From Nitrosopumilus sp. (lineage in GTDB: Archaea; Thermoproteota; Nitrososphaeria; Nitrososphaerales; Nitrosopumilaceae), in the NCBI GenBank assembly GCA_965205675.1, contig OZ242186.1, forward strand, positions 1 to 64,000: a DNA stretch of 64,000 bases. The letters run 5' to 3'. The notes beneath the pieces were generated by a model. That model searched no databases and was not told where the DNA came from. It saw nothing but the letters and a program-made list of their open reading frames with translations. Of the stretch, positions 8,786 through 64,000 are shown piece by piece. The position numbers were made by a program, and so were the translations under genes. The number at the start of each line of letters is the position of its first letter. Within the stretch, counting starts at the first letter, position 1.

Positions 8786-8881
8786 GCCTTTGGTTTTAGA
8801 ATATGTACTTAATTTCCAGTGTAAAGAATGATTCACCGGACATTAAAAATAACTAACAAAAATAAAGTATTTTGAATATAG

Positions 8882-9023
8882 TAGACGTCTTGCGTAATTA
8901 TTTCTAGGCGTGAATTTTGCTGCAGGATTTTTCAAATTGGTTGAAAAATTTGAATTTTCAGGTATGAATTCTGTTAAAATACAAAATTTGAGAAAAAATC
9001 TCTATAATTACGCAAGAGGTCTA
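8882..9023. mobile_element. MITE (142 bp) with 20-bp terminal inverted repeats
   Basis: TAGACGTCTTGCGTAATTAT (8882-8901) versus ATAATTACGCAAGAGGTCTA (9004-9023), 19/20 complementary; same end sequence at 63817. Confidence 0.8.
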
Positions 9024-9289
9024 GTTTCTAAATACAATTCATGATTTTGTAATTTAGAATTCTCCAATTCAGATTTTTTATGTTCTTCAAGTTTTTTGAT
9101 TCTTTCTTTATTAATTTGTAGTTCATTCTCTAACAAATCTAAATGAGTTTTACAAGTCTACATCTGTTTCTATTTTAAATAGAAAATTACATCTTTTACA
9201 AAAATACCAATTTCTGCAAATATTGTCATGTAATCCTCATCTGTGGGGTTTGGCACATATCGATTTCTGACAGATAATTTGAAATACAA

Positions 9290-9773
9290 AAACGTGACAC
9301 TCTCAAACCCATATCTTACAAAGGTAATTGCTGCATCAAAGAAAAAAACAGATAAGATTGATGCCTAGATACTGGCAGATCTCTTGCGCGGTGGATGTAT
9401 GCCACATGCTATGTTCCCGACAAAAGGACTGGACAATAAAGACAACTCATAAGATACAGGAAAAAACTAGTTCAATGGAGGACATCTGTCAAGAACTCTG
9501 TTCGTGGAATATTGTTACAAGAAGGGATTAAAATTCCAGGAGTTACGTTTACTGAGACATACAACAGAAGACTCGAAGCGTTAGATGACTAAAATAGATG
9601 GCTTTTTGAGACAGATAAACTATCTTAATCTGCAAATTGCAGGGATTAATTCCAAAGTGTATGCTGCAGTGAAAGTTAATCCTGATGCTCTATTGATAAA
9701 ATCAATTCTAGGAATTGGAGATTATTCTGTACTAGTGATATCATCAGAAATTGCAGGTATTGAGAAATTCAGC
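9290..9773 (+). pseudogene. IS110-family transposase remnant
   Basis: LSNPYLTKVIAASKKKTDKIDA*..LLRGG, KNSVRGILLQEG, SILGIG..SEIAGIEKF with stops and frameshifts. Confidence 0.85.
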
Positions 9774-16136: not shown

Positions 16137-16210
16137 TGGGAACGGCAGGATTTGAACCTGCGACCACTAGTCCCCCAGACTAGTATCATACCAAGCTAGA
16201 CTACGATCCC
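16137..16210 (-). tRNA. tRNA-Pro(GGG)
   Basis: GGGATCG acceptor, anticodon stem CTAGT/ACTAG around CTGGGGG, GGTTCAAATCC T-arm; U-U mismatch in acceptor stem; CCA not encoded. Confidence 0.95.
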
Positions 16211-16266: not shown

Positions 16267-16476
16267 ATGAAACTTTGCAATATTTGTCATAAGATTTCTG
16301 CTACAGATGAAGATCATCTAGATTGTGTTCAAAGAAGAAGTATAGAGTTAGAAGCTGAAGATTTCAAAAATCGTATTCCTGAAGAACTCAATCTTTCAAA
16401 AAATACTCAAGAATTAGATATTAGAGTGAAGGCAATATTAGAACATCTTTCAAAAATCAAAGATTCAGATGAATAA
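16267..16476 (+). CDS. Small hypothetical protein, possible Zn-binding
   Basis: CxxC..HxxC pattern. Confidence 0.6.
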   Translation: MKLCNICHKISATDEDHLDCVQRRSIELEAEDFKNRIPEELNLSKNTQELDIRVKAILEHLSKIKDSDE

Positions 16477-16477
16477 A

Positions 16478-17626
16478 CTATAACCATTTTGATAGTCTTT
16501 CTTTTTCAAATTCAATTTTTTTAGAAAGATTATCAGTTGTTGATTCTGTAAGATTTGTTGATGGTTTAGCATTTGTGAACATATCAACTTCAATTATAGA
16601 TGCTGTATCCCTGCCAGATTCAATGAAACATCCACCTTTTCCATCAAATAACGTAGATTCTTTTTGTGATTGAATTTTTAAAATAATATTTTTAGCAACT
16701 GTGATTCCTTCTCCTTCTGCAAAAATTCCTGCTTTTGGAACTGCCATGTTTTCTGCAACAGTTAAACTAGTTACATCCCCAATTGCAAAAACATTCTCAA
16801 AAGATGTTTTACAATCTCTGTCTATTGGAATAAATCCAGATTCTTTGGCCAATCCAGAATCATAAATTATTTTTGGAGCAATATGAGGAGGAACAGCTAA
16901 AAGTAGATCAAAATCAGCTTCACCATTTTCAAAAATTAATTTTTTGGATTCAACAGATTTTATTTTGGATAAACTATGAAAAATAATTTTTTCAGAACTT
17001 ATTAATTCAAGAATTTGTTTACTTACTTCAGATCCAGCTGCAGGTAAGGTAATTGGAGCAGGACTGTAAAAGTCAATTTGTACAGAATCACGAATTCCTC
17101 GCTTTCTTAACATAGAATCTATCAATAAACTAGCCTCAAATGGTGCTGGAGGGCATTTGTAAGGCATTCCCATTATTGATAATGCAATTTTTCCAGATTC
17201 AATATTCTCAAGTTTTTCACGTATTTCTAAAAGTTGATCATGATCATAAAGATTGAATCCGTTCTCTTCTAATCCCGGAATTTTCTGAGGAGCTAATACT
17301 GCGCCCATAGAAATAATGAGAAAATCAAAAGAAATTTCTTTAGTTTTTGTTTTTACATTATTATCTTCAAGGTTAATTGATAAAATTTCATCTTTAATAA
17401 AATCAATTCCTTTTTTTGATAATTCGTTTAACGAACCAATTGAATTCTTAAAGGTACGAGTTCCATTAATAATCCATAATTTTGCAAATCCAACCATGAA
17501 CCAATCTTTTTTATCAATTAGAGTAATTTTTAGTTGAGATGAAGATAGTGTGTTTCTTAATTCATTAGCAGCTGAGAGTCCACCAAATCCTCCTCCTAAA
17601 ATTACAACATGTGGAATATTTGTCAA
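16478..17626 (-). CDS. FAD-dependent oxidoreductase, sulfide:quinone oxidoreductase-like
   Basis: GGGFGG, YKCPPAPFE, FAIGD, PKAG..A, CFIE. Confidence 0.85.
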   Translation of the reverse strand: MTNIPHVVILGGGFGGLSAANELRNTLSSSQLKITLIDKKDWFMVGFAKLWIINGTRTFKNSIGSLNELSKKGIDFIKDEILSINLEDNNVKTKTKEISFDFLIISMGAVLAPQKIPGLEENGFNLYDHDQLLEIREKLENIESGKIALSIMGMPYKCPPAPFEASLLIDSMLRKRGIRDSVQIDFYSPAPITLPAAGSEVSKQILELISSEKIIFHSLSKIKSVESKKLIFENGEADFDLLLAVPPHIAPKIIYDSGLAKESGFIPIDRDCKTSFENVFAIGDVTSLTVAENMAVPKAGIFAEGEGITVAKNIILKIQSQKESTLFDGKGGCFIESGRDTASIIEVDMFTNAKPSTNLTESTTDNLSKKIEFEKERLSKWL

Positions 17627-38773: not shown

Positions 38774-39134
38774 TTACACTCTTCTCATAATTTATATGAA
38801 TATATGCTCAACTGATCCCAACACAAACCATTTAGGCAAATTTTGATGATCATTTAGATCTACGAACAATGTCATTTAGAACAATTCTATGCAATTTACA
38901 GAACTAACAAACAAGCAATGAAATATGTTGCAATTACATTTGCCAAAACCAGCTAAAACTGGCCAGACCTAGAGCCGATGACAGGATCACCATCAATCCA
39001 ATAATGTTTGTGTTAATTACAGGTTGCAGGTGGATTGACCTACCTGTGCAGTACAGTTCCAAATCATCCGCACATAGGAGATTTCAGGATTTCCAGCAAA
39101 AGGGAATATGGAAAAAGATTCTCAAATATGTAAT

Positions 39135-39244
39135 GGTTTCTTCCTAATCTGTTTGTTTGTAATCTTTTTTGGAGCCGAGTATTTACGAACCTTGGAACTG
39201 CTAGACTCATTTTTTATGCTATCTGATTTCCTTGCTTTCTTATT
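39135..39244 (-). pseudogene. 5' stub of a second IS110 transposase (type B)
   Basis: Identical by eye to 62208-62317. Confidence 0.75.
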
Positions 39245-40577
39245 CACATATCCATGTGAATCCCTTTTAACTATTGTCGGTATTTTTGCCATATTAATTA
39301 CAGCTTACGCTAATACACTCATACTTTCAATCACAGATGAAACCAGACACATATCCATTCGGGGTTCTCCCCCAGTACCATCTTCATCCATTTATTAGGT
39401 GAAACCGCGGTTATAGTTTCGAGGTATTATGCATCCTCAATGTGAAAACGCGGCCAAACTCCTAACTGTAATGTTTTACAAATTATTGATGACATTGAAT
39501 AAATTCTCTCCTCTCTTTTAGCATCCAATAAATGACACGCAATAACTTTGATGCAGCAGCAACTGCTGCCTTTGAGGTCCCTCTCTTTTTCTTAATGCGA
39601 TTATAAAATTTTGTAATGTCGCTATCTAGTGCGTATCTAACATGTGCATGAATTGCCTCCACTAGCAACCATCTTAGCATGGTGCTTCCTCTCTTTGTAA
39701 TTCTTCCGTGATGTATTGTATCTGCAGAATTTCTCACCGATGGAACAATCCCTGCATATGCACATAACTTGTGAGAATTTGAAAATCTACTAATCTCTGC
39801 AATTTCTGAGAATATGCTCAATGCAGTGTATGGTCCAACTCCAGGTGTGGATGTCAAAATACACACACCAGGATTATCATTTACCATGCGACGTATCATG
39901 GAATCTATCTTTGCAACCTCCTTTTTGTGAAATTTTATGCTTTGTAGGTACGAATCTATTCTATAACTCTCCAATTTTCCAAGTGCACGTATGTGTTCTG
40001 AGGAAAATGGTGTTGCTTTGATATGGATTCCCTCCTGTAGTGTAATACCATGTATGGAATTCTTCATCTTTACAATAATGCGCACAATCTTGTGTCGATG
40101 TCTTACAAGCTGTCTGTATTGCACAATTGTGTGATCTGGCACAAATGATTCTGCAATGTATTCCTCGTAGCAAATTTGCAAGATGGTACGCATCAATTTT
40201 ATCAGTCTTTTTGAGTGATGATGCTATTATCTTTGTGTTGTATGGATTAGATAGTATAACATCAAGATGTAATTTGTCTGTCATGTGTCTATAAAGGCCA
40301 TACCAGACAGATGATGACTCTAAAACATATTTTGCGTTCTTTGGAATTTTGGATGTAATTTTGCTAATAGCAGAAAAATCACTGGAAATCTTTTTGTTAA
40401 ATAATAATTTGCCAATCTCATCTACTGCTGCCACCTGTACAGAGTTCTTGTGAACATCCAATCCTACAAACATCAAATATTTTTTTTTCAGGAAGGGTAG
40501 TGTGTTTGTTTGCATTTCTTACTTTCTTGATACGAATGCAAGTACCATCTAATTTCCTAGCTGATTTTGGCACATAT
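39245..40577 (-). mobile_element. IS110/IS1111-type element A, copy 1 (frameshifted transposase)
   Basis: MFVGLDVHK, LESS, KTDKIDA (DEDD), PGVG, AYAGIVP..SA; bounded by an ATATGTG direct repeat; exact ends inferred. Confidence 0.9.
39333..39465 (-). ncRNA. Candidate bridge/seekRNA of IS110 element A (copy 1)
   Basis: Two hairpins, each with a large internal loop; loops match element junction sequences. Confidence 0.65.
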
Positions 40578-41153
40578 GGTTATAGTTATCTGCACACAAA
40601 GCAAACAAGATTAGTCTGAAAAAAGCATCAGTTGATTCCTCAAGTGCTGCTGCAAAAAAGGGGCAACGATATAAGAAGAGATGGTTTCAAAAAGATTACA
40701 AGCACAAAAATTCATGTTGCAGTAGAACAAAACGGTTTATCAATATCTATTACAATGGATTCTGCAAATTTTCATAATTTCACAAAATATGGAATTGATG
40801 AAAAAGAAAACATTTCTGATTTTGTAAATGATGAGGAAAATTGTTTCAGTTTATGCAGACGAAATTTGTGATGCAAAATCAATTAGAAATCATTTGAGAA
40901 ACAGAAACATCAATCCATGTATTCCATTTAGAAAAAATAATGATGGAGCAACAAAAAATAGATCATACAAAAAAATATAACAAGATTCGTTATGTTGTGG
41001 AGAGATTCTTTGCATAACTCAAGTGTGGATTCTGCAAGAACAGCAATAAGATATGAAAAGAATTGCAAGAATTATTTGGGACCCGTTTACTTGGCACCAA
41101 TTCTGATGTATTGGAGAGTATTGGGATGAGTTGGCTATAAGAATAACCTTCAT

Positions 41154-42454: not shown

Positions 42455-44590
42455 ATGAATGAAGTAATTTTAAAAATTGATGAAAGTCCACAACAACACG
42501 TTGGAAGAGGTAGAGCAATAATTGATCCTAAAATAATTGAAGATCAAAATTGGAATACTGGGCAAATACTAGAACTAACGTATAACAAAAAAACACATGT
42601 AAAACTTTGGCCAGGTGCATCTGAAGAATATGGTTTAGGTATTATCAAAATAGATGGAATGACAAGACAAAATATTGGAGCTGGAATTGGGGATAAAATT
42701 TCATTAAAAACGGTAGAAGCAATAACTGCCGAACAAATAATTTTGTCACCTACTGAAAAGATTGCTGCAGAAGGATTGCAAGAATATATGATTTACAATT
42801 ATCTTAATCATGTGTTTACAACTGGTGATTCTATTTCTCTTAATACCCAGATGGGAGGTAGAGTTCAGTTTGTTATAACAAGTACAAAGCCATCAAAACC
42901 TGTAATTGTAACAGAAAATACTGTGTTCAAACTTGGAGTTATGACTAAAGCGATTGATTCGGCTGTTCCAAGAATCACATATGATGAACTTGGTGGTCTA
43001 AAAAATGAAGTTCAAAAAATTCGTGAAATGGTGGAATTGCCAATGAGGCATCCTGAATTATTTGATAAAATAGGTGTAGAGGCACCAAAAGGTGTTTTAT
43101 TGTATGGTCCTCCCGGTACTGGGAAAACACTACTTGCAAAAGCAGTTGCTGGTGAAACAAATGCTCATTTTATTTCACTTAGCGGGCCAGAAATAATGGG
43201 AAAGCATTATGGAGAAAGTGAAGAAAGAATCAGAGAAATCTTTACTCAGGCAGAAGAGAATTCTCCCAGTATAATTTTCATAGATGAGATTGATTCTATT
43301 GCCCCCAAAAGAGATGAAGTATCAGGTGAGCTAGAGAAAAGAGTCGTTTCACAATTGTTGACTCTAATGGATGGTATGAAATCAAGAGGAAAAGTTGTAG
43401 TTATTGCAGCTACTAACAGACCTGATTCAATTGATCCTGCACTACGAAGACCAGGTAGATTTGATAGAGAAATAGAAATTGGAATTCCAGACGATGGAGG
43501 ACGATTTGATATTCTTTCTATTCATACACGTGGTATGCCAATTGATGAGAAAGTAGATTTGAAACAAATATCAAAAACAACACATGGATTTGTAGGAGCT
43601 GATTTAGAAGTATTATCCAAAGAGGCTGCAATGAGCTCACTTCGTAGAATTCTTCCTGAAATTGATCTTGACGAAGAAAAAATTTCATCAGAAATTCTTC
43701 AAAAAATCCAAATTACTGATGAAGATTTTAGAGATGCATTAAAAGAAGTTCGACCAAGTGCACTTAGAGAAGTTCAAGTTCAAATCCCAAACACAAGTTG
43801 GGATGACGTTGGCGGTTTAGATGAATTAAAAGAAGAACTCAAGGAAGCAGTTGAATGGCCAATCAAATACAAAGATGCATATGATTATGTTGACGTAGAA
43901 ACGCCAAAAGGAATTTTGCTTTATGGTCCTCCCGGTACTGGTAAAACTCTAATTGCAAAAGCTCTTGCAAAAATGACAGAATCGAATTTTATCAGCATTA
44001 AAGGTCCTGAATTGCTCTCAAAATGGGTTGGAGAATCTGAAAAAGGAATTCGTGAAATCTTTAGAAAAGCACGACAAGTAGCACCATGTATTATTTTCTT
44101 AGATGAAGTTGATGCACTTGTTCCAAGAAGAGGTAGTGGAGGTACTGAATCTCATGTTACAGAAAATGTAGTATCTCAAATTTTAACAGAAATTGATGGA
44201 TTAGAAGAACTACACAACGTTTTGATAATTGGAGCTACAAACCGACTAGATATTGTTGATGAAGCACTTCTAAGACCCGGTAGATTTGATAGAATAATCA
44301 AGGTTCCAAATCCTGATGAAAAAGGACGACAACATATCTTTGAAATTCATACAAAGAACAAACCACTTGGAAACGATGTGAAAATCTCTGAACTGGTAAA
44401 TCTAACTAAAGATTTCAGTGGTGCCGAGATTACAGCAGTAACAAATCGAGCGGCGACTGCTGCTTTGAAGAGATACGTTGGCGCAAAATCCAAGAATGTG
44501 AAGGAGATCCAAATCACCCAATGGGATCTAACTGATGCTGTGGATAAGGTAAGACCTAAAAAGAAAGAGACACCCATACCCAATCCATAA
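42455..44590 (+). CDS. cdc48: CDC48/VAT family AAA+ ATPase
   Basis: Two GPPGTGKT modules, two RPGRFDR motifs, N-domain. Confidence 0.96.
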
Positions 44591-59269: not shown

Positions 59270-60248
59270 TGGGACTGTTGTCTTTGTATGAGGAGATACT
59301 GAAACCTGGTAAGACCGTACGTGTACTCTACAATTCTGATGGTACAGCTGTTTATCATAAAGTCATGGATGAGAATTCCAAGCAATAACACATTATATCA
59401 TTTCCTTTCGACTAGAGGTACTGATGATAAATTGTTCAAGGTTTGCAGATTAACTCAAAATCCCAAATAGAAGAACAATTGACAGGTGATTCCAAGTTCT
59501 GCCAATTGGTGATATCGTTGGGACAATGGAAAGCCTGTTTGTATCAGAGAAACTAGTCGACGACATATCTGCATCAGTGGATAGTTCCATGCTAAAAGCT
59601 GCAGGATCCAGTATGGCACAAATCAGATATGAAAAAGAATGGAATTCCAATCTCAGGAATTGATACTGATGCCTTTGACTTTTTCAACCAAAGGGTTGGA
59701 TATTTGGATATAAACTACACATGAGTTGCAGTACTGGAAAATTATCAGTACCATTGTCTGCCAATGTTAGTACTGCAAATGTTCAGGACAACAAGATGTA
59801 TGAAATGCTAACTGAATCTCTTGCAGGATTAGTTGAGAATATTTTAGCAGATCCTGCATATGACAATGGTTCACTGCATCAATTTAGCAACAAGAAAAAT
59901 CTGAGACTAATTACTCCAATAAAACAATACCCGCATACGCCACCAGAGGGAATAAAACTCGTAGAGTTTTATAATTCTGTAATTAGTCAAGAGCTGTATG
60001 CAGATAGAAAAGTCTCAATTGAACCTCTATTTGAGTATCTCAAAGATATTTTTGACATCAGAGTATTGCCTGTAAAGGGATTGCACAATGTCAAATCATT
60101 TGTGTTGGTTTGTGTTCTTGTGTATCAGTTGATAGTATACTACAACTGTGCAATTAGGACAGAGAATCCAAGAATTGTAAAGAGAATGCTGTATTGCTAG
60201 AGAGATATTGGAAATTATTTTTGTAAATCATTATGTCCAAGTCTCGGG
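59270..60248 (+). pseudogene. DDE transposase remnant (IS982/IS5-like)
   Basis: SVDSSML, GWIFGYKLH, TANVQD, ADPAYD, RKVSIEPLF with frameshifts; ends approximate. Confidence 0.8.
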
Positions 60249-60288
60249 TACATAATCACCAATTTTTTTTATATTAGTAACTATAACC

Positions 60289-61231
60289 ATATGTGCCAAA
60301 ATCAGCTAGGAAATTAGATGGTACTTGCATTCGTATCAAGAAAGTAAGAAATGCAAACAAACACACTACCCTTCCTGAAAAAAAATATTTGATGTTTGTA
60401 GGATTGGATGTTCACAAGAACTCTGTACAGGTGGCAGCAGTAGATGAGATTGGCAAATTATTATTTAACAAAAAGATTTCCAGTGATTTTTCTGCTATTA
60501 GCAAAATTACATCCAAAATTCCAAAGAACGCAAAATATGTTTTAGAGTCATCATCTGTCTGGTATGGTTTGTACAGACACATGACAGGCAAATTACATCT
60601 TGATGTTGTATTATCAAATCCATACAACACAAAGATAATTGCCGCATCCCTCAAAAAGACCGATAACATTGATGTGTATCAACTTGCAAATCTGTTACGA
60701 GGAAGGTATTGCAGAATTATTTGTGTCAGATCATACTATTGTGTAATACAGACAGCTTGTAAGACATCGACACAAGATTATACGCGTTATTGTAAAGATG
60801 AAGAATTCCATACATGGCATTACACTACAGAAGGGAATCCATATTAAAGCGACATCCTTCTCCTCAACACATACGAGCCACTTGGAAATCTGAAAAGTTA
60901 CAGAATAGACTCGCATCTGCAAAGCATGGGATTTCACAAAAAAGAGGTTGCAAAAATAGATTCCATGATACGTCGTATGGTGATTGGAAATCATGATGTG
61001 CATATTTTGACATCGATACCTAGCGTTGGACTGCAAGTCGCGTTAGAATTTATGAGGGACAAGGCCTCGTCTGATAACTGCGAACAATCCTAATGAAAGG
61101 ATAAAGATAGCATTGAGAGAATAGTCTCGTATGGATACATGCCCGCATCTTTTGATTGTAATTCTTCTTTAACGAAAGCCATGCCCTAATGTTTAGAAAG
61201 AGAGGAAATGTATAAAACAATTCACATGGAT
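60289..61231 (+). mobile_element. Internally deleted, mosaic IS110 element (copy 2) with a variant right end
   Basis: 5' part near-identical to element A, truncated near 61031, followed by a homologous non-coding end containing TTCACATGGAT; end could extend to 61262. Confidence 0.8.
61035..61155 (+). ncRNA. Candidate bridge/seekRNA, variant C
   Basis: Conserved CGCGTT..TGAGG..CCTCG..ATAACYGCG frame and ATGGATA, with different loop sequences. Confidence 0.55.
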
Positions 61232-62068: not shown

Positions 62069-62317
62069 TTAATTTGTAAAATGCTTTTTGATGGATTCAT
62101 GAGTGTTATCCACTTTGTCATTTTGTAATACTTTGCCTGCATCATCCATTATTGCTACTTGAAGAAACTTCTTGTGCAGGTCAATGCCCACAAACATGCC
62201 TTTCTTTGGTTTCTTCCTAATCTGTTTGTTTGTAATCTTTTTTGGAGCCGAGTATTTACGAACCTTGGAACTGCTAGACTCATTTTTTATGCTATCTGAT
62301 TTCCTTGCTTTCTTATT
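62069..62317 (-). pseudogene. Truncated IS110 transposase type B (N-terminus only)
   Basis: MFVGIDLHKKFLQVAIMD, then truncation; read in frame from the ATG at 62365. Confidence 0.85.
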
Positions 62318-63653
62318 CACATATCCATGTGAATCCCTTTTAACTATTGTCGGTATTTTTGCCATATTAATTACAGCTTACGCTAATACACTCATACTTT
62401 CAATCACAGATGAAACCAGACACATATCCATTCGGGGTTCTCCCCCAGTACCATCTTCATCCATTTATTAGGTGAAACCGCGGTTATAGTTTCGAGGTAT
62501 TATGCATCCTCAATGTGAAAACGCGGCCAAACTCCTAACTGTAATGTTTTACAAATTATTGATGACATTGAACAAATTCTCTCCTCTCTTTTAGCATCCA
62601 ATATATGACACGCAATAACTTTGATGCAGCAGCAACTGCTGCCTTTGAGGTCCCTCTCTTTTTCTTAATGCGATTATAAAATTTTGTAATGTTGCTATCT
62701 GGTGCGTATCTAACATGTGCATGAATTGCCTCCACTAGCAACCATCTTAGCATGGTGCTTCCTCTCTTTGTAATTCTTCCGTGATGTATTGTATCTGCAG
62801 AATTTCTCACCGATGGAACAATCCCTGCATATGCACATAACTTGTGAGAATTTGAAAATCTACTAATCTCTGCAATTTCTGAGAATATGCTCAATGCAGT
62901 GTATGGTCCAACTCCAGGTGTGGATATCAAAATACACACACCAGGATTATCATTTACCATGCGACGTATCATGGAATCTATCTTTGCAACCTCCTTTTTG
63001 TGAAATTTTATGCTTTGTAGGTACGAATCTATTCTATAACTCTCCAATTTTCCAAGTGCACGTATGTGTTCTGAGGAAAATGGTGTTGCTTTGATATGGA
63101 TTCCCTCCTGTAGTGTAATACCATGTATGGAATTCTTCATCTTTACAATAATGCGTATAATCTTGTGTCGATGTCTTACAAGCTGTCTGTATTGCACAAT
63201 TGTGTGATCTGGCACAAATGATTCTGCAATGTATCCCTCCTCGTAGCAAATTTGCAAGATGGTACGCATCAATTTTATCAGTCTTTTTGAGTGATGATGC
63301 TATTATCTTTGTGTTGTATGGATTAGATAGTATAACATCAAGATGTAATTTGTCTGTCATGTGTCTATAAAGGCCATACCAGACAGATGATGACTCTAAA
63401 ACATATTTTGCGTTCTTTGGAATTTTGGATGTAATTTTGCTAATAGCAGAAAAATCACTGGAAATCTTTTTGTTAAATAATAATTTGCCAATCTCATCTA
63501 CTGCTGCCACCTGTACAGAGTTCTTGTGAACATCCAATCCTACAAACATCAAATATTTTTTTTTCAGGAAGGGTAGTGTGTTTGTTTGCATTTCTTACTT
63601 TCTTGATACGAATGCAAGTACCATCTAATTTCCTAGCTGATTTTGGCACATAT
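62318..63653 (-). mobile_element. IS110/IS1111-type element A, copy 3 (frameshifted transposase)
   Basis: Near-identical direct repeat of 39245-40577 (about 8 differences seen, including a 3-nt indel). Confidence 0.9.
62406..62538 (-). ncRNA. Candidate bridge/seekRNA of IS110 element A (copy 3)
   Basis: Identical by eye to 39333-39465. Confidence 0.65.
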
Positions 63654-63816
63654 GGTTATGGTTATAGTTATCTTTTATTATCATATTTTTTCTGAGATAT
63701 GATTGGATTTGAAATATATGCGATCCAAATCTCTTTAGGTGGTACTTTGAGTCTAGATTGTATATTAGGAAACAAAGTTATGCAGACCAAACTTTGATTT
63801 GATTTTTTTACTACAA

Positions 63817-64000
63817 TAGACCTCTTGCGCAATTAGACATATTTTACCATATTACACAGATTCCTTCACAGCAAGATCCAAAGCTAAGAACAATAACTCC
63901 ATTTCATGTTAACATACAAGCAACTCTCAAAAAAGCCAAAATCCCTTCTCTCTTTTACTGGAGTGACTAGGCAACAGTTTGATGTGATTCTAAGAGACGT
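63817..64000 (+). mobile_element. Left end of an IS5-family (ISL2-like) element running off the window
   Basis: TIR TAGACCTCTTGCGCAATTA; ORF from 63906 MLTYKQLSKKPKSLLSFTGVTRQQFD resembles the N-terminus of DDE_Tnp_4 transposases. Confidence 0.7.

Follow-up and report, generated by a model that had tools for sequence, protein, structure and literature searches.

Does the short stretch that follows a disrupted transposase gene in an archaeal genome encode a guide RNA and, if so, where are the ends of the element to which it belongs? This question arises at positions 39333-39465 (minus strand) of a 64,000-nucleotide (nt) window from Nitrosopumilus sp. (contig OZ242186.1), where the original prediction, made from the letters alone, had placed a two-loop bridge RNA or seekRNA of an IS110/IS1111-type insertion sequence (IS). 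Our computational analysis indicates that the region very probably is a predicted guide RNA of about 150 nt, carried by an IS1111-type element (IS110 family) whose boundaries are defined by a TA core; the host is a Nitrosopumilus-like archaeon. We regard the class of the RNA as confirmed and the site assignment as corrected; as far as can be read from the DNA, the element leaves the known mechanism unchanged. The window lies at the start of the genome, which consists of one 2.01-Mb contig with 33.7% G+C. A model of archaeal small-subunit ribosomal RNA gave an end-to-end match of 1467 bits, which is weak evidence alone because this model also matches bacterial controls. The nearest homologous loci in other assemblies come from Nitrosopumilus sp. 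records (98-99% protein identity).

The element, here called IS-1, is represented at this locus by copy A (39251-40582, minus strand; 1332 bp counted with 7 nt on the left and 3 nt on the right, TAACCAT-ATGTGCC ... ATTCACAT-GGA). Throughout the genome we found 16 matches to its left end and nine intact right ends, and the IS-1 copies are 98-99% identical to each other. Two siblings are also present, IS-2 (about 1326 bp, with a transposase ~60% identical to that of IS-1) and IS-3 (transposase of 369 amino acids (aa), intact in three copies), together with several degraded variants. The transposase gene of copy A (39483-40515, minus strand) is split over two frames, with open reading frames (ORFs) at 39961-40515 and 39483-40196, and the RNA region starts 9 nt past its stop. 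The match to our covariance model (see below) spans 39325-39474 on the minus strand with 110 bits and an E value of 6e-22. All of the stems and loop words described for the two hairpins are present. On the minus strand, hairpin 1 has an outer stem of GGCCGCG (39455-39449) and CGCGGTT (39409-39403) and an inner stem of GAGG (39438-39435) and CCTC (39424-39421); it is enclosed by a base stem, TTAGG/CCTAA, and followed by hairpin 2, with GGATGAA (39389-39383) and TTCATCT (39341-39335) as the outer and GGGG (39373-39370) and CCCC (39364-39361) as the inner stem. The 5' strand of hairpin 1 is TTTTCACATT (39448-39439), and its 3' strand, GAAACTATAAC(C), includes AACTATAACC at 39418-39409. Hairpin 2 carries GATGGTACT as the 5' strand and GAATGGATATGTGTCTGG as the 3' strand, which includes ATGGATATGTG at 39358-39348. 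These words occur far more often than expected by chance: AACTATAACC is found six times in the window, compared to 0.15 expected occurrences and a count of six in none of 100 shuffles, and ATGGATATGTG four times compared to 0.02. Three of the six AACTATAACC sites are the left junctions of the three copies in the window, just as claimed; two are RNA copies, and one is a stray occurrence at 16476. The four ATGGATATGTG sites are two RNA copies and two right junctions. The latter word had been read as the circle junction, but its 11 nt correspond to the right junction (element end, TA and the neighbor's TGTG), and only 7 nt (ATGGATA) match the expected circle junction.

Conservation of the RNA was analyzed with a covariance model (R1) derived from nine variants from the genome, which describes two hairpins within a base stem in a structure of 26 pairs. 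We searched 92 sources, i.e. the window, seven loci of the same genome and 84 loci from relatives, leaving out own-genome duplicates and weaker matches (L003, L004, L010-L013, L019, L023, and L025-L042) as well as near-identical IS-3 copies (L044-L047). At E<=0.01, R1 gave 78 matches, mostly at Nitrosopumilaceae loci, and nearly all of them start at or just past the end of the transposase match. At this threshold, L020-L022 and L024 gave no match, and neither did L107, L109, L111, L112, L115, and L117-L121, whose labels are Methanomassiliicoccales, Thermoplasmat-, Archaeoglob-, Bathyarchaeota or Patescibacteria; this is not evidence of absence at these loci. In a MAFFT alignment, IS-1 was out of register in both hairpins (one column in hairpin 1, two columns in the 3' stem of hairpin 2), and the model-based alignment was used instead. 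In its 66 distinct rows, 93.9% of the paired cells can pair, compared to 40-51% if the partners are slid by 1-3 columns. Compensatory changes on both sides were found for 19 of the 26 pairs, five helices are supported, and none of the structure measures was reached by any of 500 shuffles. Together with the guide covariation described below, the model matches bear out the earlier claim of a two-loop IS110/IS1111-type guide RNA encoded downstream of the transposase.

We then compared the loop strands of the homologues to the DNA next to each element. Right ends were located as CA[CT]AT[AG][AGT]A, 40-115 nt past the RNA, and left ends as TAA...T[AG]TGTG, 1000-1270 nt ahead of the RNA; only rows with these motifs were kept. 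In IS-1, the 5' strand of hairpin 1 (UUUUCACAUU, 39439-39448, minus strand) would serve as right-target guide, complementary to A-TGTGAA of the target top strand. The claim that its TTCACAT is complementary to the right junction thus holds, and the relationship extends to the relatives: in 39 classes with distinct strands, the reverse complement of the right-target guide agrees with the cognate right flank at an average of 6.64 of 9 positions, compared to 4.42 for non-cognate flanks (0/10000 permutations; offsets of +/-2 were allowed for cognate and non-cognate pairs alike). Examples are AATAATTACAA in IS-2 and CCAATAATTACAAT in its empty site, ACATACAAAAC and TACATACAAAAATA in L097, TATACTGCGCC and TATACTGCGG in L090, and TGATTCATAAC and TGATTCATACC in the L060 group. 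The 3' strand of hairpin 1 (GAAACUAUAACC, 39409-39420, minus strand) consists of the putative left-target guide AACUA, the core UA, and ACC. Across 31 classes, the left-target guide (up to 6 nt before TA) agrees on average with the cognate left flank at 3.13 positions and with non-cognate flanks at 1.28 (0/10000 permutations), as illustrated by L069 (GTTGA-TA-ACT for GGTTGA|TAACT) or by L018 and L059 (TCTGG-TA-ACT for TTCTGG|TAACT). A lack of covariation between loops and flanks across homologous elements had been named in advance as a refuting result; the covariation was observed.

The strands of hairpin 2 follow the element's own ends. Its 5' strand (GAUGGUACU, 39374-39382, minus strand) is complementary to ACCAT in the left extension and thus a candidate right-donor guide. 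Read as its reverse complement, this strand contains the pentamer that follows TA in the left extension, i.e. ACCAT, (G)CTAT, ACCGT, ATCAT or ACAGT; in 21 classes, in which ACCAT, ACCGT, ATCAT and ACAGT covary, the mean agreement is 4.38/5 for cognate and 3.85/5 for non-cognate extensions (0/10000 permutations). The 3' strand (GAAUGGAUAUGUGUCUGG, 39343-39360, minus strand) contains the putative left-donor guide AUGGA, the core UA, and UGUG, which matches the right half of the target. The left-donor guide AT(G/A)GA-TA follows the right end CACAT(G/A)GA in 45 of 46 distinct combinations, and its G or A tracks that of the right end (32 GG, 13 AA, one AG, no GA). Since the strands of hairpin 1 covary with the flanks and those of hairpin 2 with the element's own ends, we assign the RNA to the IS1111-type seekRNAs/bridge RNAs. 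Beyond the core, the ACC in the 3' strand of hairpin 1 matches the left extension of IS-1 itself. By inspection, the three bases past TA in this strand are usually equal to, or could wobble-pair with, the start of the extension (ACC/ACC in IS-1, ACT/ACT in IS-2, ATT/ATC in L099 and L087, AAT/AAC in L071); L051, L014, L081 and L079 are misfits.

The ends of the element were determined from its copies and from empty sites. All 16 left ends of IS-1 read TAAC(T/C)A, zero to two units of TAACCA, TAACCAT, and ATGTGCC, with TAACTA upstream in 13 of them. All nine right ends read ...ATTCACATGGA and are followed by TATGTGAATAA, the neighbor being the left end of IS-2 in eight cases and of IS-3 in one. 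Solo copies of IS-2 have the form flank|TAACTAT-ATGTGAAT...ATTCACAT-GGA|TAATTA(C/T)A. Three empty paralogous sites of IS-2 (genome positions 1159227/8, 1629593, and 1994509/8) read ...CCAA|TAATTACA..., twice as ...AATCCAA|TAATTACAATTGA... and once as ...TTTTCCAA|TAATTACATAAAA..., whereas filled sites read CCAA|TAACTATATGTG...CACATGGA|TAATTACA. The empty sites lack TAAC(T/C)AT. Therefore, this conserved sequence to the left of ATGTG arrives with the element, and TAACTAT belongs to IS-2. A comparison of CCAA|TAATTACA with CCAA|TAACTAT...GGA|TAATTACA further reveals that donor and target share only TA(A), insertion being site- and orientation-specific and without any longer duplication. The left (TAAC(C/T)AT) and right (GGA or AGA) terminal extensions fixed by the empty sites are conserved in the relatives, and short sub-terminal inverted repeats are present (IS-2 ATGTGAAT, 8 bp; IS-3, 7 bp; IS-1 ATGTG, 5 bp). 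A composite of IS-1 and IS-2 at genome position 1667529 has the same empty sites as flanks, and its inserted DNA starts with TAACTA-TAACCAT-ATGTGCC; AACTATAACC was therefore not pre-existing DNA there. Loci 815081 (IS-2 alone) and 1667529 were also considered as a strict before/after pair, which we rejected because their IS-2 subtypes differ; these are therefore separate insertions into paralogous targets, and the empty sites still show the insert.

For the site of copy A itself, two paralogs (E1 and E2) read GCAGATA(T/C)AATTACAT. They were not accepted as its empty form, being off by 2 nt at the junction; a contig with the empty allele, which joins 39136 to 40587 in two of four sequencing runs, fits this site better. 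Its joint is read from the coordinates as GCAGATA|CCATTACAT, which puts the left crossover right after TA. According to our best reading, the crossover of IS-1 would take place at TA, with AACTA-TA-TGTGAA as target, CACATGGA-TA-ACCATATGTG as donor, and TA instead of AT as the core; AACCAT is best assigned to the element, as part of the 7-nt left extension TAACCAT. The target is the boundary between left extension and inverted repeat of the siblings IS-2 and IS-3, and therefore every intact IS-1 sits head-to-tail before such an element. The same tandem of an IS-1-like and an IS-2-like element, with an intact IS-1-like transposase, is found in loci L077 and L082 of another Nitrosopumilus assembly, where the right end and the hairpin-2 guide of the IS-1-like element have both changed from G to A. 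The IS-2 copies behind IS-1 are all of one subtype (GAAAAAATCCA) and solo IS-2 copies of another, a pattern which suggests that the IS-1+IS-2 composite may have spread as a unit. The contexts of copies A and B and the IS-3 context show at least two further insertions of IS-1. The variable number of ACCATA units could be due to insertion of IS-1 into its own left end (AACCA-TA-TGTGCC), the resulting tandem then being lost by homologous recombination.

The transposase belongs to the IS110 family. In copy A, Pfam assigned PF01548 to ORF 39961-40515 and PF02371 to ORF 39483-40196, and intact sibling proteins contain both domains. The NCBIfam model NF033542 ('IS110 family RNA-guided transposase') gave 250.5 bits, compared to a cut-off of 140. 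The closest solved relatives are the transposases of ISCro4 and IS621 (E about 1e-12). In an alignment of five proteins, E89, D128, D131 and S283/S287 are invariant, and a GIDLHK motif is visible in the sequences; these are candidates for the catalytic D-E-D-D residues and the C-terminal serine. Two full-length IS-2 copies are intact (genome positions 1109250 and 617005), and the copy at window position 62197 has the intact form of the N-terminal site. Nine of 14 IS-2 N-terminal regions (at 202678, 815210 and seven more genome positions) have lost 2 nt (MFVGIDLHKKFLQVING*), which detaches the first catalytic motif.

Several observations weigh against the interpretation given so far. The right-target guide fits its flank at no more than 5 of 9 positions in 10 of the 39 classes (e.g. 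L098, L080, and L014), and its register relative to helix 3 is not the same in IS-1 and IS-2 (a difference of 1-2 nt). Past the core in the 3' strand of hairpin 2, the bases agree with the right flank for IS-1 and IS-3 but do not do so for IS-2 and L014, and their covariation with the flank is weak (153/10000 permutations), so that a handshake role of these bases is weakly supported. Since a small number of closely related assemblies contributed many of the loci, the classes are not fully independent. The alignment used for counting pairs was fitted to the structure of the model and is biased towards it; the slid controls are the fairer comparison, since they keep relatedness. As anticipated, RNAfold predicted both hairpins, but the single-sequence fold (z -1.83) was equalled by 11 of 200 shuffles. 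It is not significant alone, and the case for the RNA therefore rests on the comparative evidence. With one contig excepted, the empty sites are paralogs at 90-98% identity. The expected circle junction reads ...TTCACATGGA-TA-ACCATATGTGCC... with a TA core and ...TTCACATGG-AT-ATGTGCC... with an AT core, and we found 0 and 0 circle or tandem junctions in the assembly and none among the contig joints of the four runs, nor any right end joined to extension and inverted repeat in the retrieved loci. Finally, the transposase frame is broken at one site in all ten IS-1 copies examined (40162-40178 and 63238-63254 in the window). Compared to the intact IS-1-like genes of L076, L077, L080 and L082, seven copies share the same extra G, and the break differs individually in copy A, in the copy at genome position 571479, and in the interrupted copy at 443820. 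Since all ten frames are broken, the copies are dead, were moved in trans, or were moved as IS-1+IS-2 composites by the intact transposases of IS-2 or IS-3.

Three alternatives to a functional guide RNA with a TA core have to be weighed against this background. The original prediction had described the same kind of RNA, but an element running from ATGTGCC to CATGG, a target AACTATAACC-AT-ATGTGAA, and a donor CATGG-AT-ATGTG with AT as the core. This placement accounts for the 10-nt identity between the 3' strand of hairpin 1 and the sequence that precedes ATGTGCC in each of the three copies in the window; with these boundaries ATGGATATGTG also reads as right end, AT and ATGTG, and the corresponding strands of IS-3 and L014 as right end, AT and ATGT. 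However, the absence of TAAC(T/C)AT from the empty sites, together with the empty-allele contig, shifts the crossover by a few bases to TA; a crossover placed elsewhere by empty sites had been named in advance as the second refuting result, and in this detail the original prediction fails. The uninterrupted target that an AT core demands (AACTATAACCATATGTGAA) occurs 0 times in the 2.01-Mb genome, compared to six unoccupied left ends of IS-2 (AACTATATGTGAA) and four of IS-3 (TAACCATATGTGAA), which are the sites expected for a TA core. Moreover, a sibling IS with a doubled extension would be required for every insertion, and such an element was never observed. The 5' strand of hairpin 2 covaries with the pentamer ACCAT/ACTAT/ACCGT/ATCAT/ACAGT, which places this pentamer in the donor, the 3' strand of hairpin 2 in IS-2 (ATGGATACATG) differs from right end, AT and ATGTG, and a 7-nt left extension is a feature of the IS1111 family (PMC11187229). 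Taken together, an AT core appears very improbable to us.

We give still less credit to the idea that the loop words act as DNA, either as sub-terminal protein-binding repeats of the element ends or as leftovers of nested ends. It would fit the recurrence of AGATGGTACT from hairpin 2, in the same orientation, ~30 nt inside the left end, but the strands of hairpin 1 follow DNA outside the element that differs between relatives, the helices stay paired through double changes, which only RNA or single-strand structure explains, and, of the two strands, one is a complement and the other an identical copy of the DNA that it matches, which is also the case for known guides. The third alternative is a relic, i.e. 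an RNA gene intact by descent in an element that is immobile now, the flank matches recording past events only. We consider this unlikely overall, yet far from negligible, given the broken frames of all ten IS-1 copies, the truncated IS-2 next to copy A, the deleted chimera represented by copy C, and the missing circle junction in assembly and contig joints. Against it stand the 98-99% identity of the IS-1 copies and at least three independent insertion contexts (the IS-2 subtype with GGAAGAAACCA, the IS-2 subtype with GAAAAAATCCA, and the left end of IS-3). Intact transposases with near-identical hairpin-2 strands are present (three copies of IS-3 and two full copies of IS-2), and the variable number of ACCATA units points to repeated events. 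In any case, this alternative concerns present activity only and not the identity of the RNA.

With a guide RNA and a TA core, each of the four loop strands has a counterpart in the DNA. The 5' strand of hairpin 1 is complementary to the top strand to the right of the insertion point, and its 3' strand is identical to the top strand on the other side, continuing through TA into the start of the element. In hairpin 2, the 3' strand is identical to the final 5 nt of the element together with TA, and the 5' strand is complementary to ACCAT in the 7-nt left extension. A mechanism can be proposed by analogy with IS621 and ISEc11: the DEDD transposase would bind this RNA, the element would be excised as a circle with the junction CACATGGA-TA-ACCATATGTG, the two loops would pair with both strands of target and donor, and strands would be exchanged at the shared TA. 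A more far-reaching scenario is offered tentatively: in an IS1111-like clade of the Nitrosopumilaceae, handshake-like bases might extend the bottom-strand guides, which would imply an order of strand exchange opposite to that of IS621, and IS-1 might have been re-programmed into the left end of its siblings, splitting their donor site, forming IS-1+IS-2 composites, and spreading with a broken transposase. If true, IS-1 would be a non-autonomous parasite of other insertion sequences that carries a guide RNA.

The putative assignment to IS1111 is based on layout (RNA downstream, extensions, and strand order) and on pairwise identities. As in the seekRNA systems of ISEc11, ISKpn4, ISPa11 and ISPst6, the guide lies in the non-coding region downstream of a DEDD transposase gene, the segment complementary to the top strand is located 5' of the segment matching it, and both matches meet at the insertion point (PMC11187229). 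In IS1111 elements, the left terminal extension measures 7 (or 6) bp and the right one 3 bp, next to sub-terminal inverted repeats, and natural re-direction among relatives occurs there as well (PMC11187229). The length of ~150 nt agrees with the 148-172 nt of 'long' seekRNAs, while hairpin 1 with its stem comprises ~71 nt compared to 82-96 nt for the short forms (PMC11187229). Differences are the archaeal host, a transposase only 22-23% identical to those of IS5075/IS4321, and the fact that our system is known from sequence alone. It also matches no Rfam family: the window had a single match at the gathering score, a tRNA, and the best other match (18.4 bits compared to a gathering score of 50) is at chance level. 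The inverted repeats are also shorter, with 5-8 bp compared to 11-13 bp (PMC11187229) or 7-17 bp (PMC11208160). According to the latter report, bridge RNAs are predicted within the right end of 93% of the IS1111 elements in ISfinder.

For IS621 and ISCro4, two reports (PMC11208160, PMC11208158) describe a bridge RNA with a target loop and a donor loop, each with one strand pairing to the top and one to the bottom strand, a core dinucleotide shared by donor and target, and handshake guides, i.e. extra guide-adjacent bases matching the other partner. All of these features have counterparts here, although the core is CT there and TA in IS-1. Further differences are the position of the RNA (at the 3' end of the element here and at the 5' end in IS621/ISCro4), a reversed strand order in each loop (PMC11208158), and the handshake-like bases, which stand beside the left guides with bottom-strand pairing in our elements and beside the right guides with top-strand pairing in IS621. 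The target of IS-1, the left end of same-family siblings, gives rise to head-to-tail IS-1/IS-2 pairs. IS4321 and IS5075 share with IS-1 a target that is a conserved sequence of another mobile element, but differ in that this target is provided by Tn21-family transposons, namely by their terminal repeats. The same holds for ISEc21, except that it inserts into IS3-family transposase genes (PMC11187229). A full-text literature search, in sources available in part and without supplementary tables, which may list members of this clade, returned no paper on such an RNA in Nitrosopumilaceae or other archaea.

Direct sequence evidence would thereby extend RNA-guided (seek/bridge RNA) transposition to ammonia-oxidizing archaea. 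About 40 naturally re-programmed pairs of guide and site make the pairing rules of the little-studied IS1111-type loops readable, i.e. the TA core, a donor arm of 5 nt within the '7-nt extension', and matches to the other partner in the bases beside the left guides. The finding also accounts for the head-to-tail pile-up of elements in this IS-rich archaeal genome. For tool building, a compact pair of recombinase and RNA from a mesophilic archaeon becomes available, its function being predicted from sequence.

The remaining copies in the window are clustered near its end. Copy B (62324-63664, minus strand; 62324-63658 in the comparison of the three copies) is 99% identical to copy A, has one extra ACCATA unit at its left end, encodes an identical guide RNA (62398-62547, minus strand; covariance-model match), and is directly followed by a truncated IS-2 (62073-62323). 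In copy C (60284-61230, plus strand), the 5' half of IS-1 (91% identical) is fused to an IS-2-like 3' region and the middle of the transposase gene is absent; its guide RNA (61016-61162, plus strand) is an IS-2-type variant with different hairpin-1 strands. Directly to the left of copy C (59480-60200, plus strand) lies what appears to be the 3' part of a different transposase gene with frames that look broken. At copy A, the left extension of a sibling IS-2 starts with TAACTA (40583-40588, minus strand), and IS-1 splits these 6 nt from the IS-2 remainder. The latter is a left-end remnant (39135-39250, minus strand; TATGTGAATAAG...GAAGAAACC), in which an internal deletion has ACC in common with the flank; it looks as if this deletion ran from one ACC triplet to another and left ~116 nt of the IS-2 part. 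Copy A is itself nested in another repeated element (38900-39134 and 40589-41000), of which uninterrupted paralogs, 94-95% identical, are found at genome positions 497472-497722 and 1789476-1789726; judged from ORF 40632-40871, this element looks like a fragment of an IS5-type DDE transposase gene. At the right end of the elements, an A/T-rich box is located 12-21 nt before the tip (TATAAAAA in IS-2, TTTTTAAAG in IS-3, and TTAAAA in IS-1, 39251-39275 on the minus strand). Such a box could act as an archaeal TATA box facing outward, for expression of transposase and RNA from the circle or of the next tandem element.

Some further observations were made in the window. The stray AACTATAACC (16476-16485, plus strand) is followed by ATTTTGATAG instead of ATGTG and lies ~270 nt from a tRNA gene (16137-16210); it may be due to chance, given the 0.15 expected occurrences per window, or represent the footprint of a lost element. 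Another IS110-family transposase gene fragment at 9195-9773 (plus strand) encodes a protein ~57% identical to residues 24-217 of the IS-2 transposase. Repeats and insertion sequences are very abundant in the genome as a whole. Some of the IS-2 and IS-1 copies are flanked by high-copy repeats (8878-9023 and 63814-63942), and the left flanks of v754 and IS2_1109 have about 30 genome matches each, with 92-100% identity. A direct repeat of 78% identity (43060-43149 and 43879-43968) within the 711-aa ORF 42455-44590 presumably corresponds to the two ATPase domains of a Cdc48-like protein.

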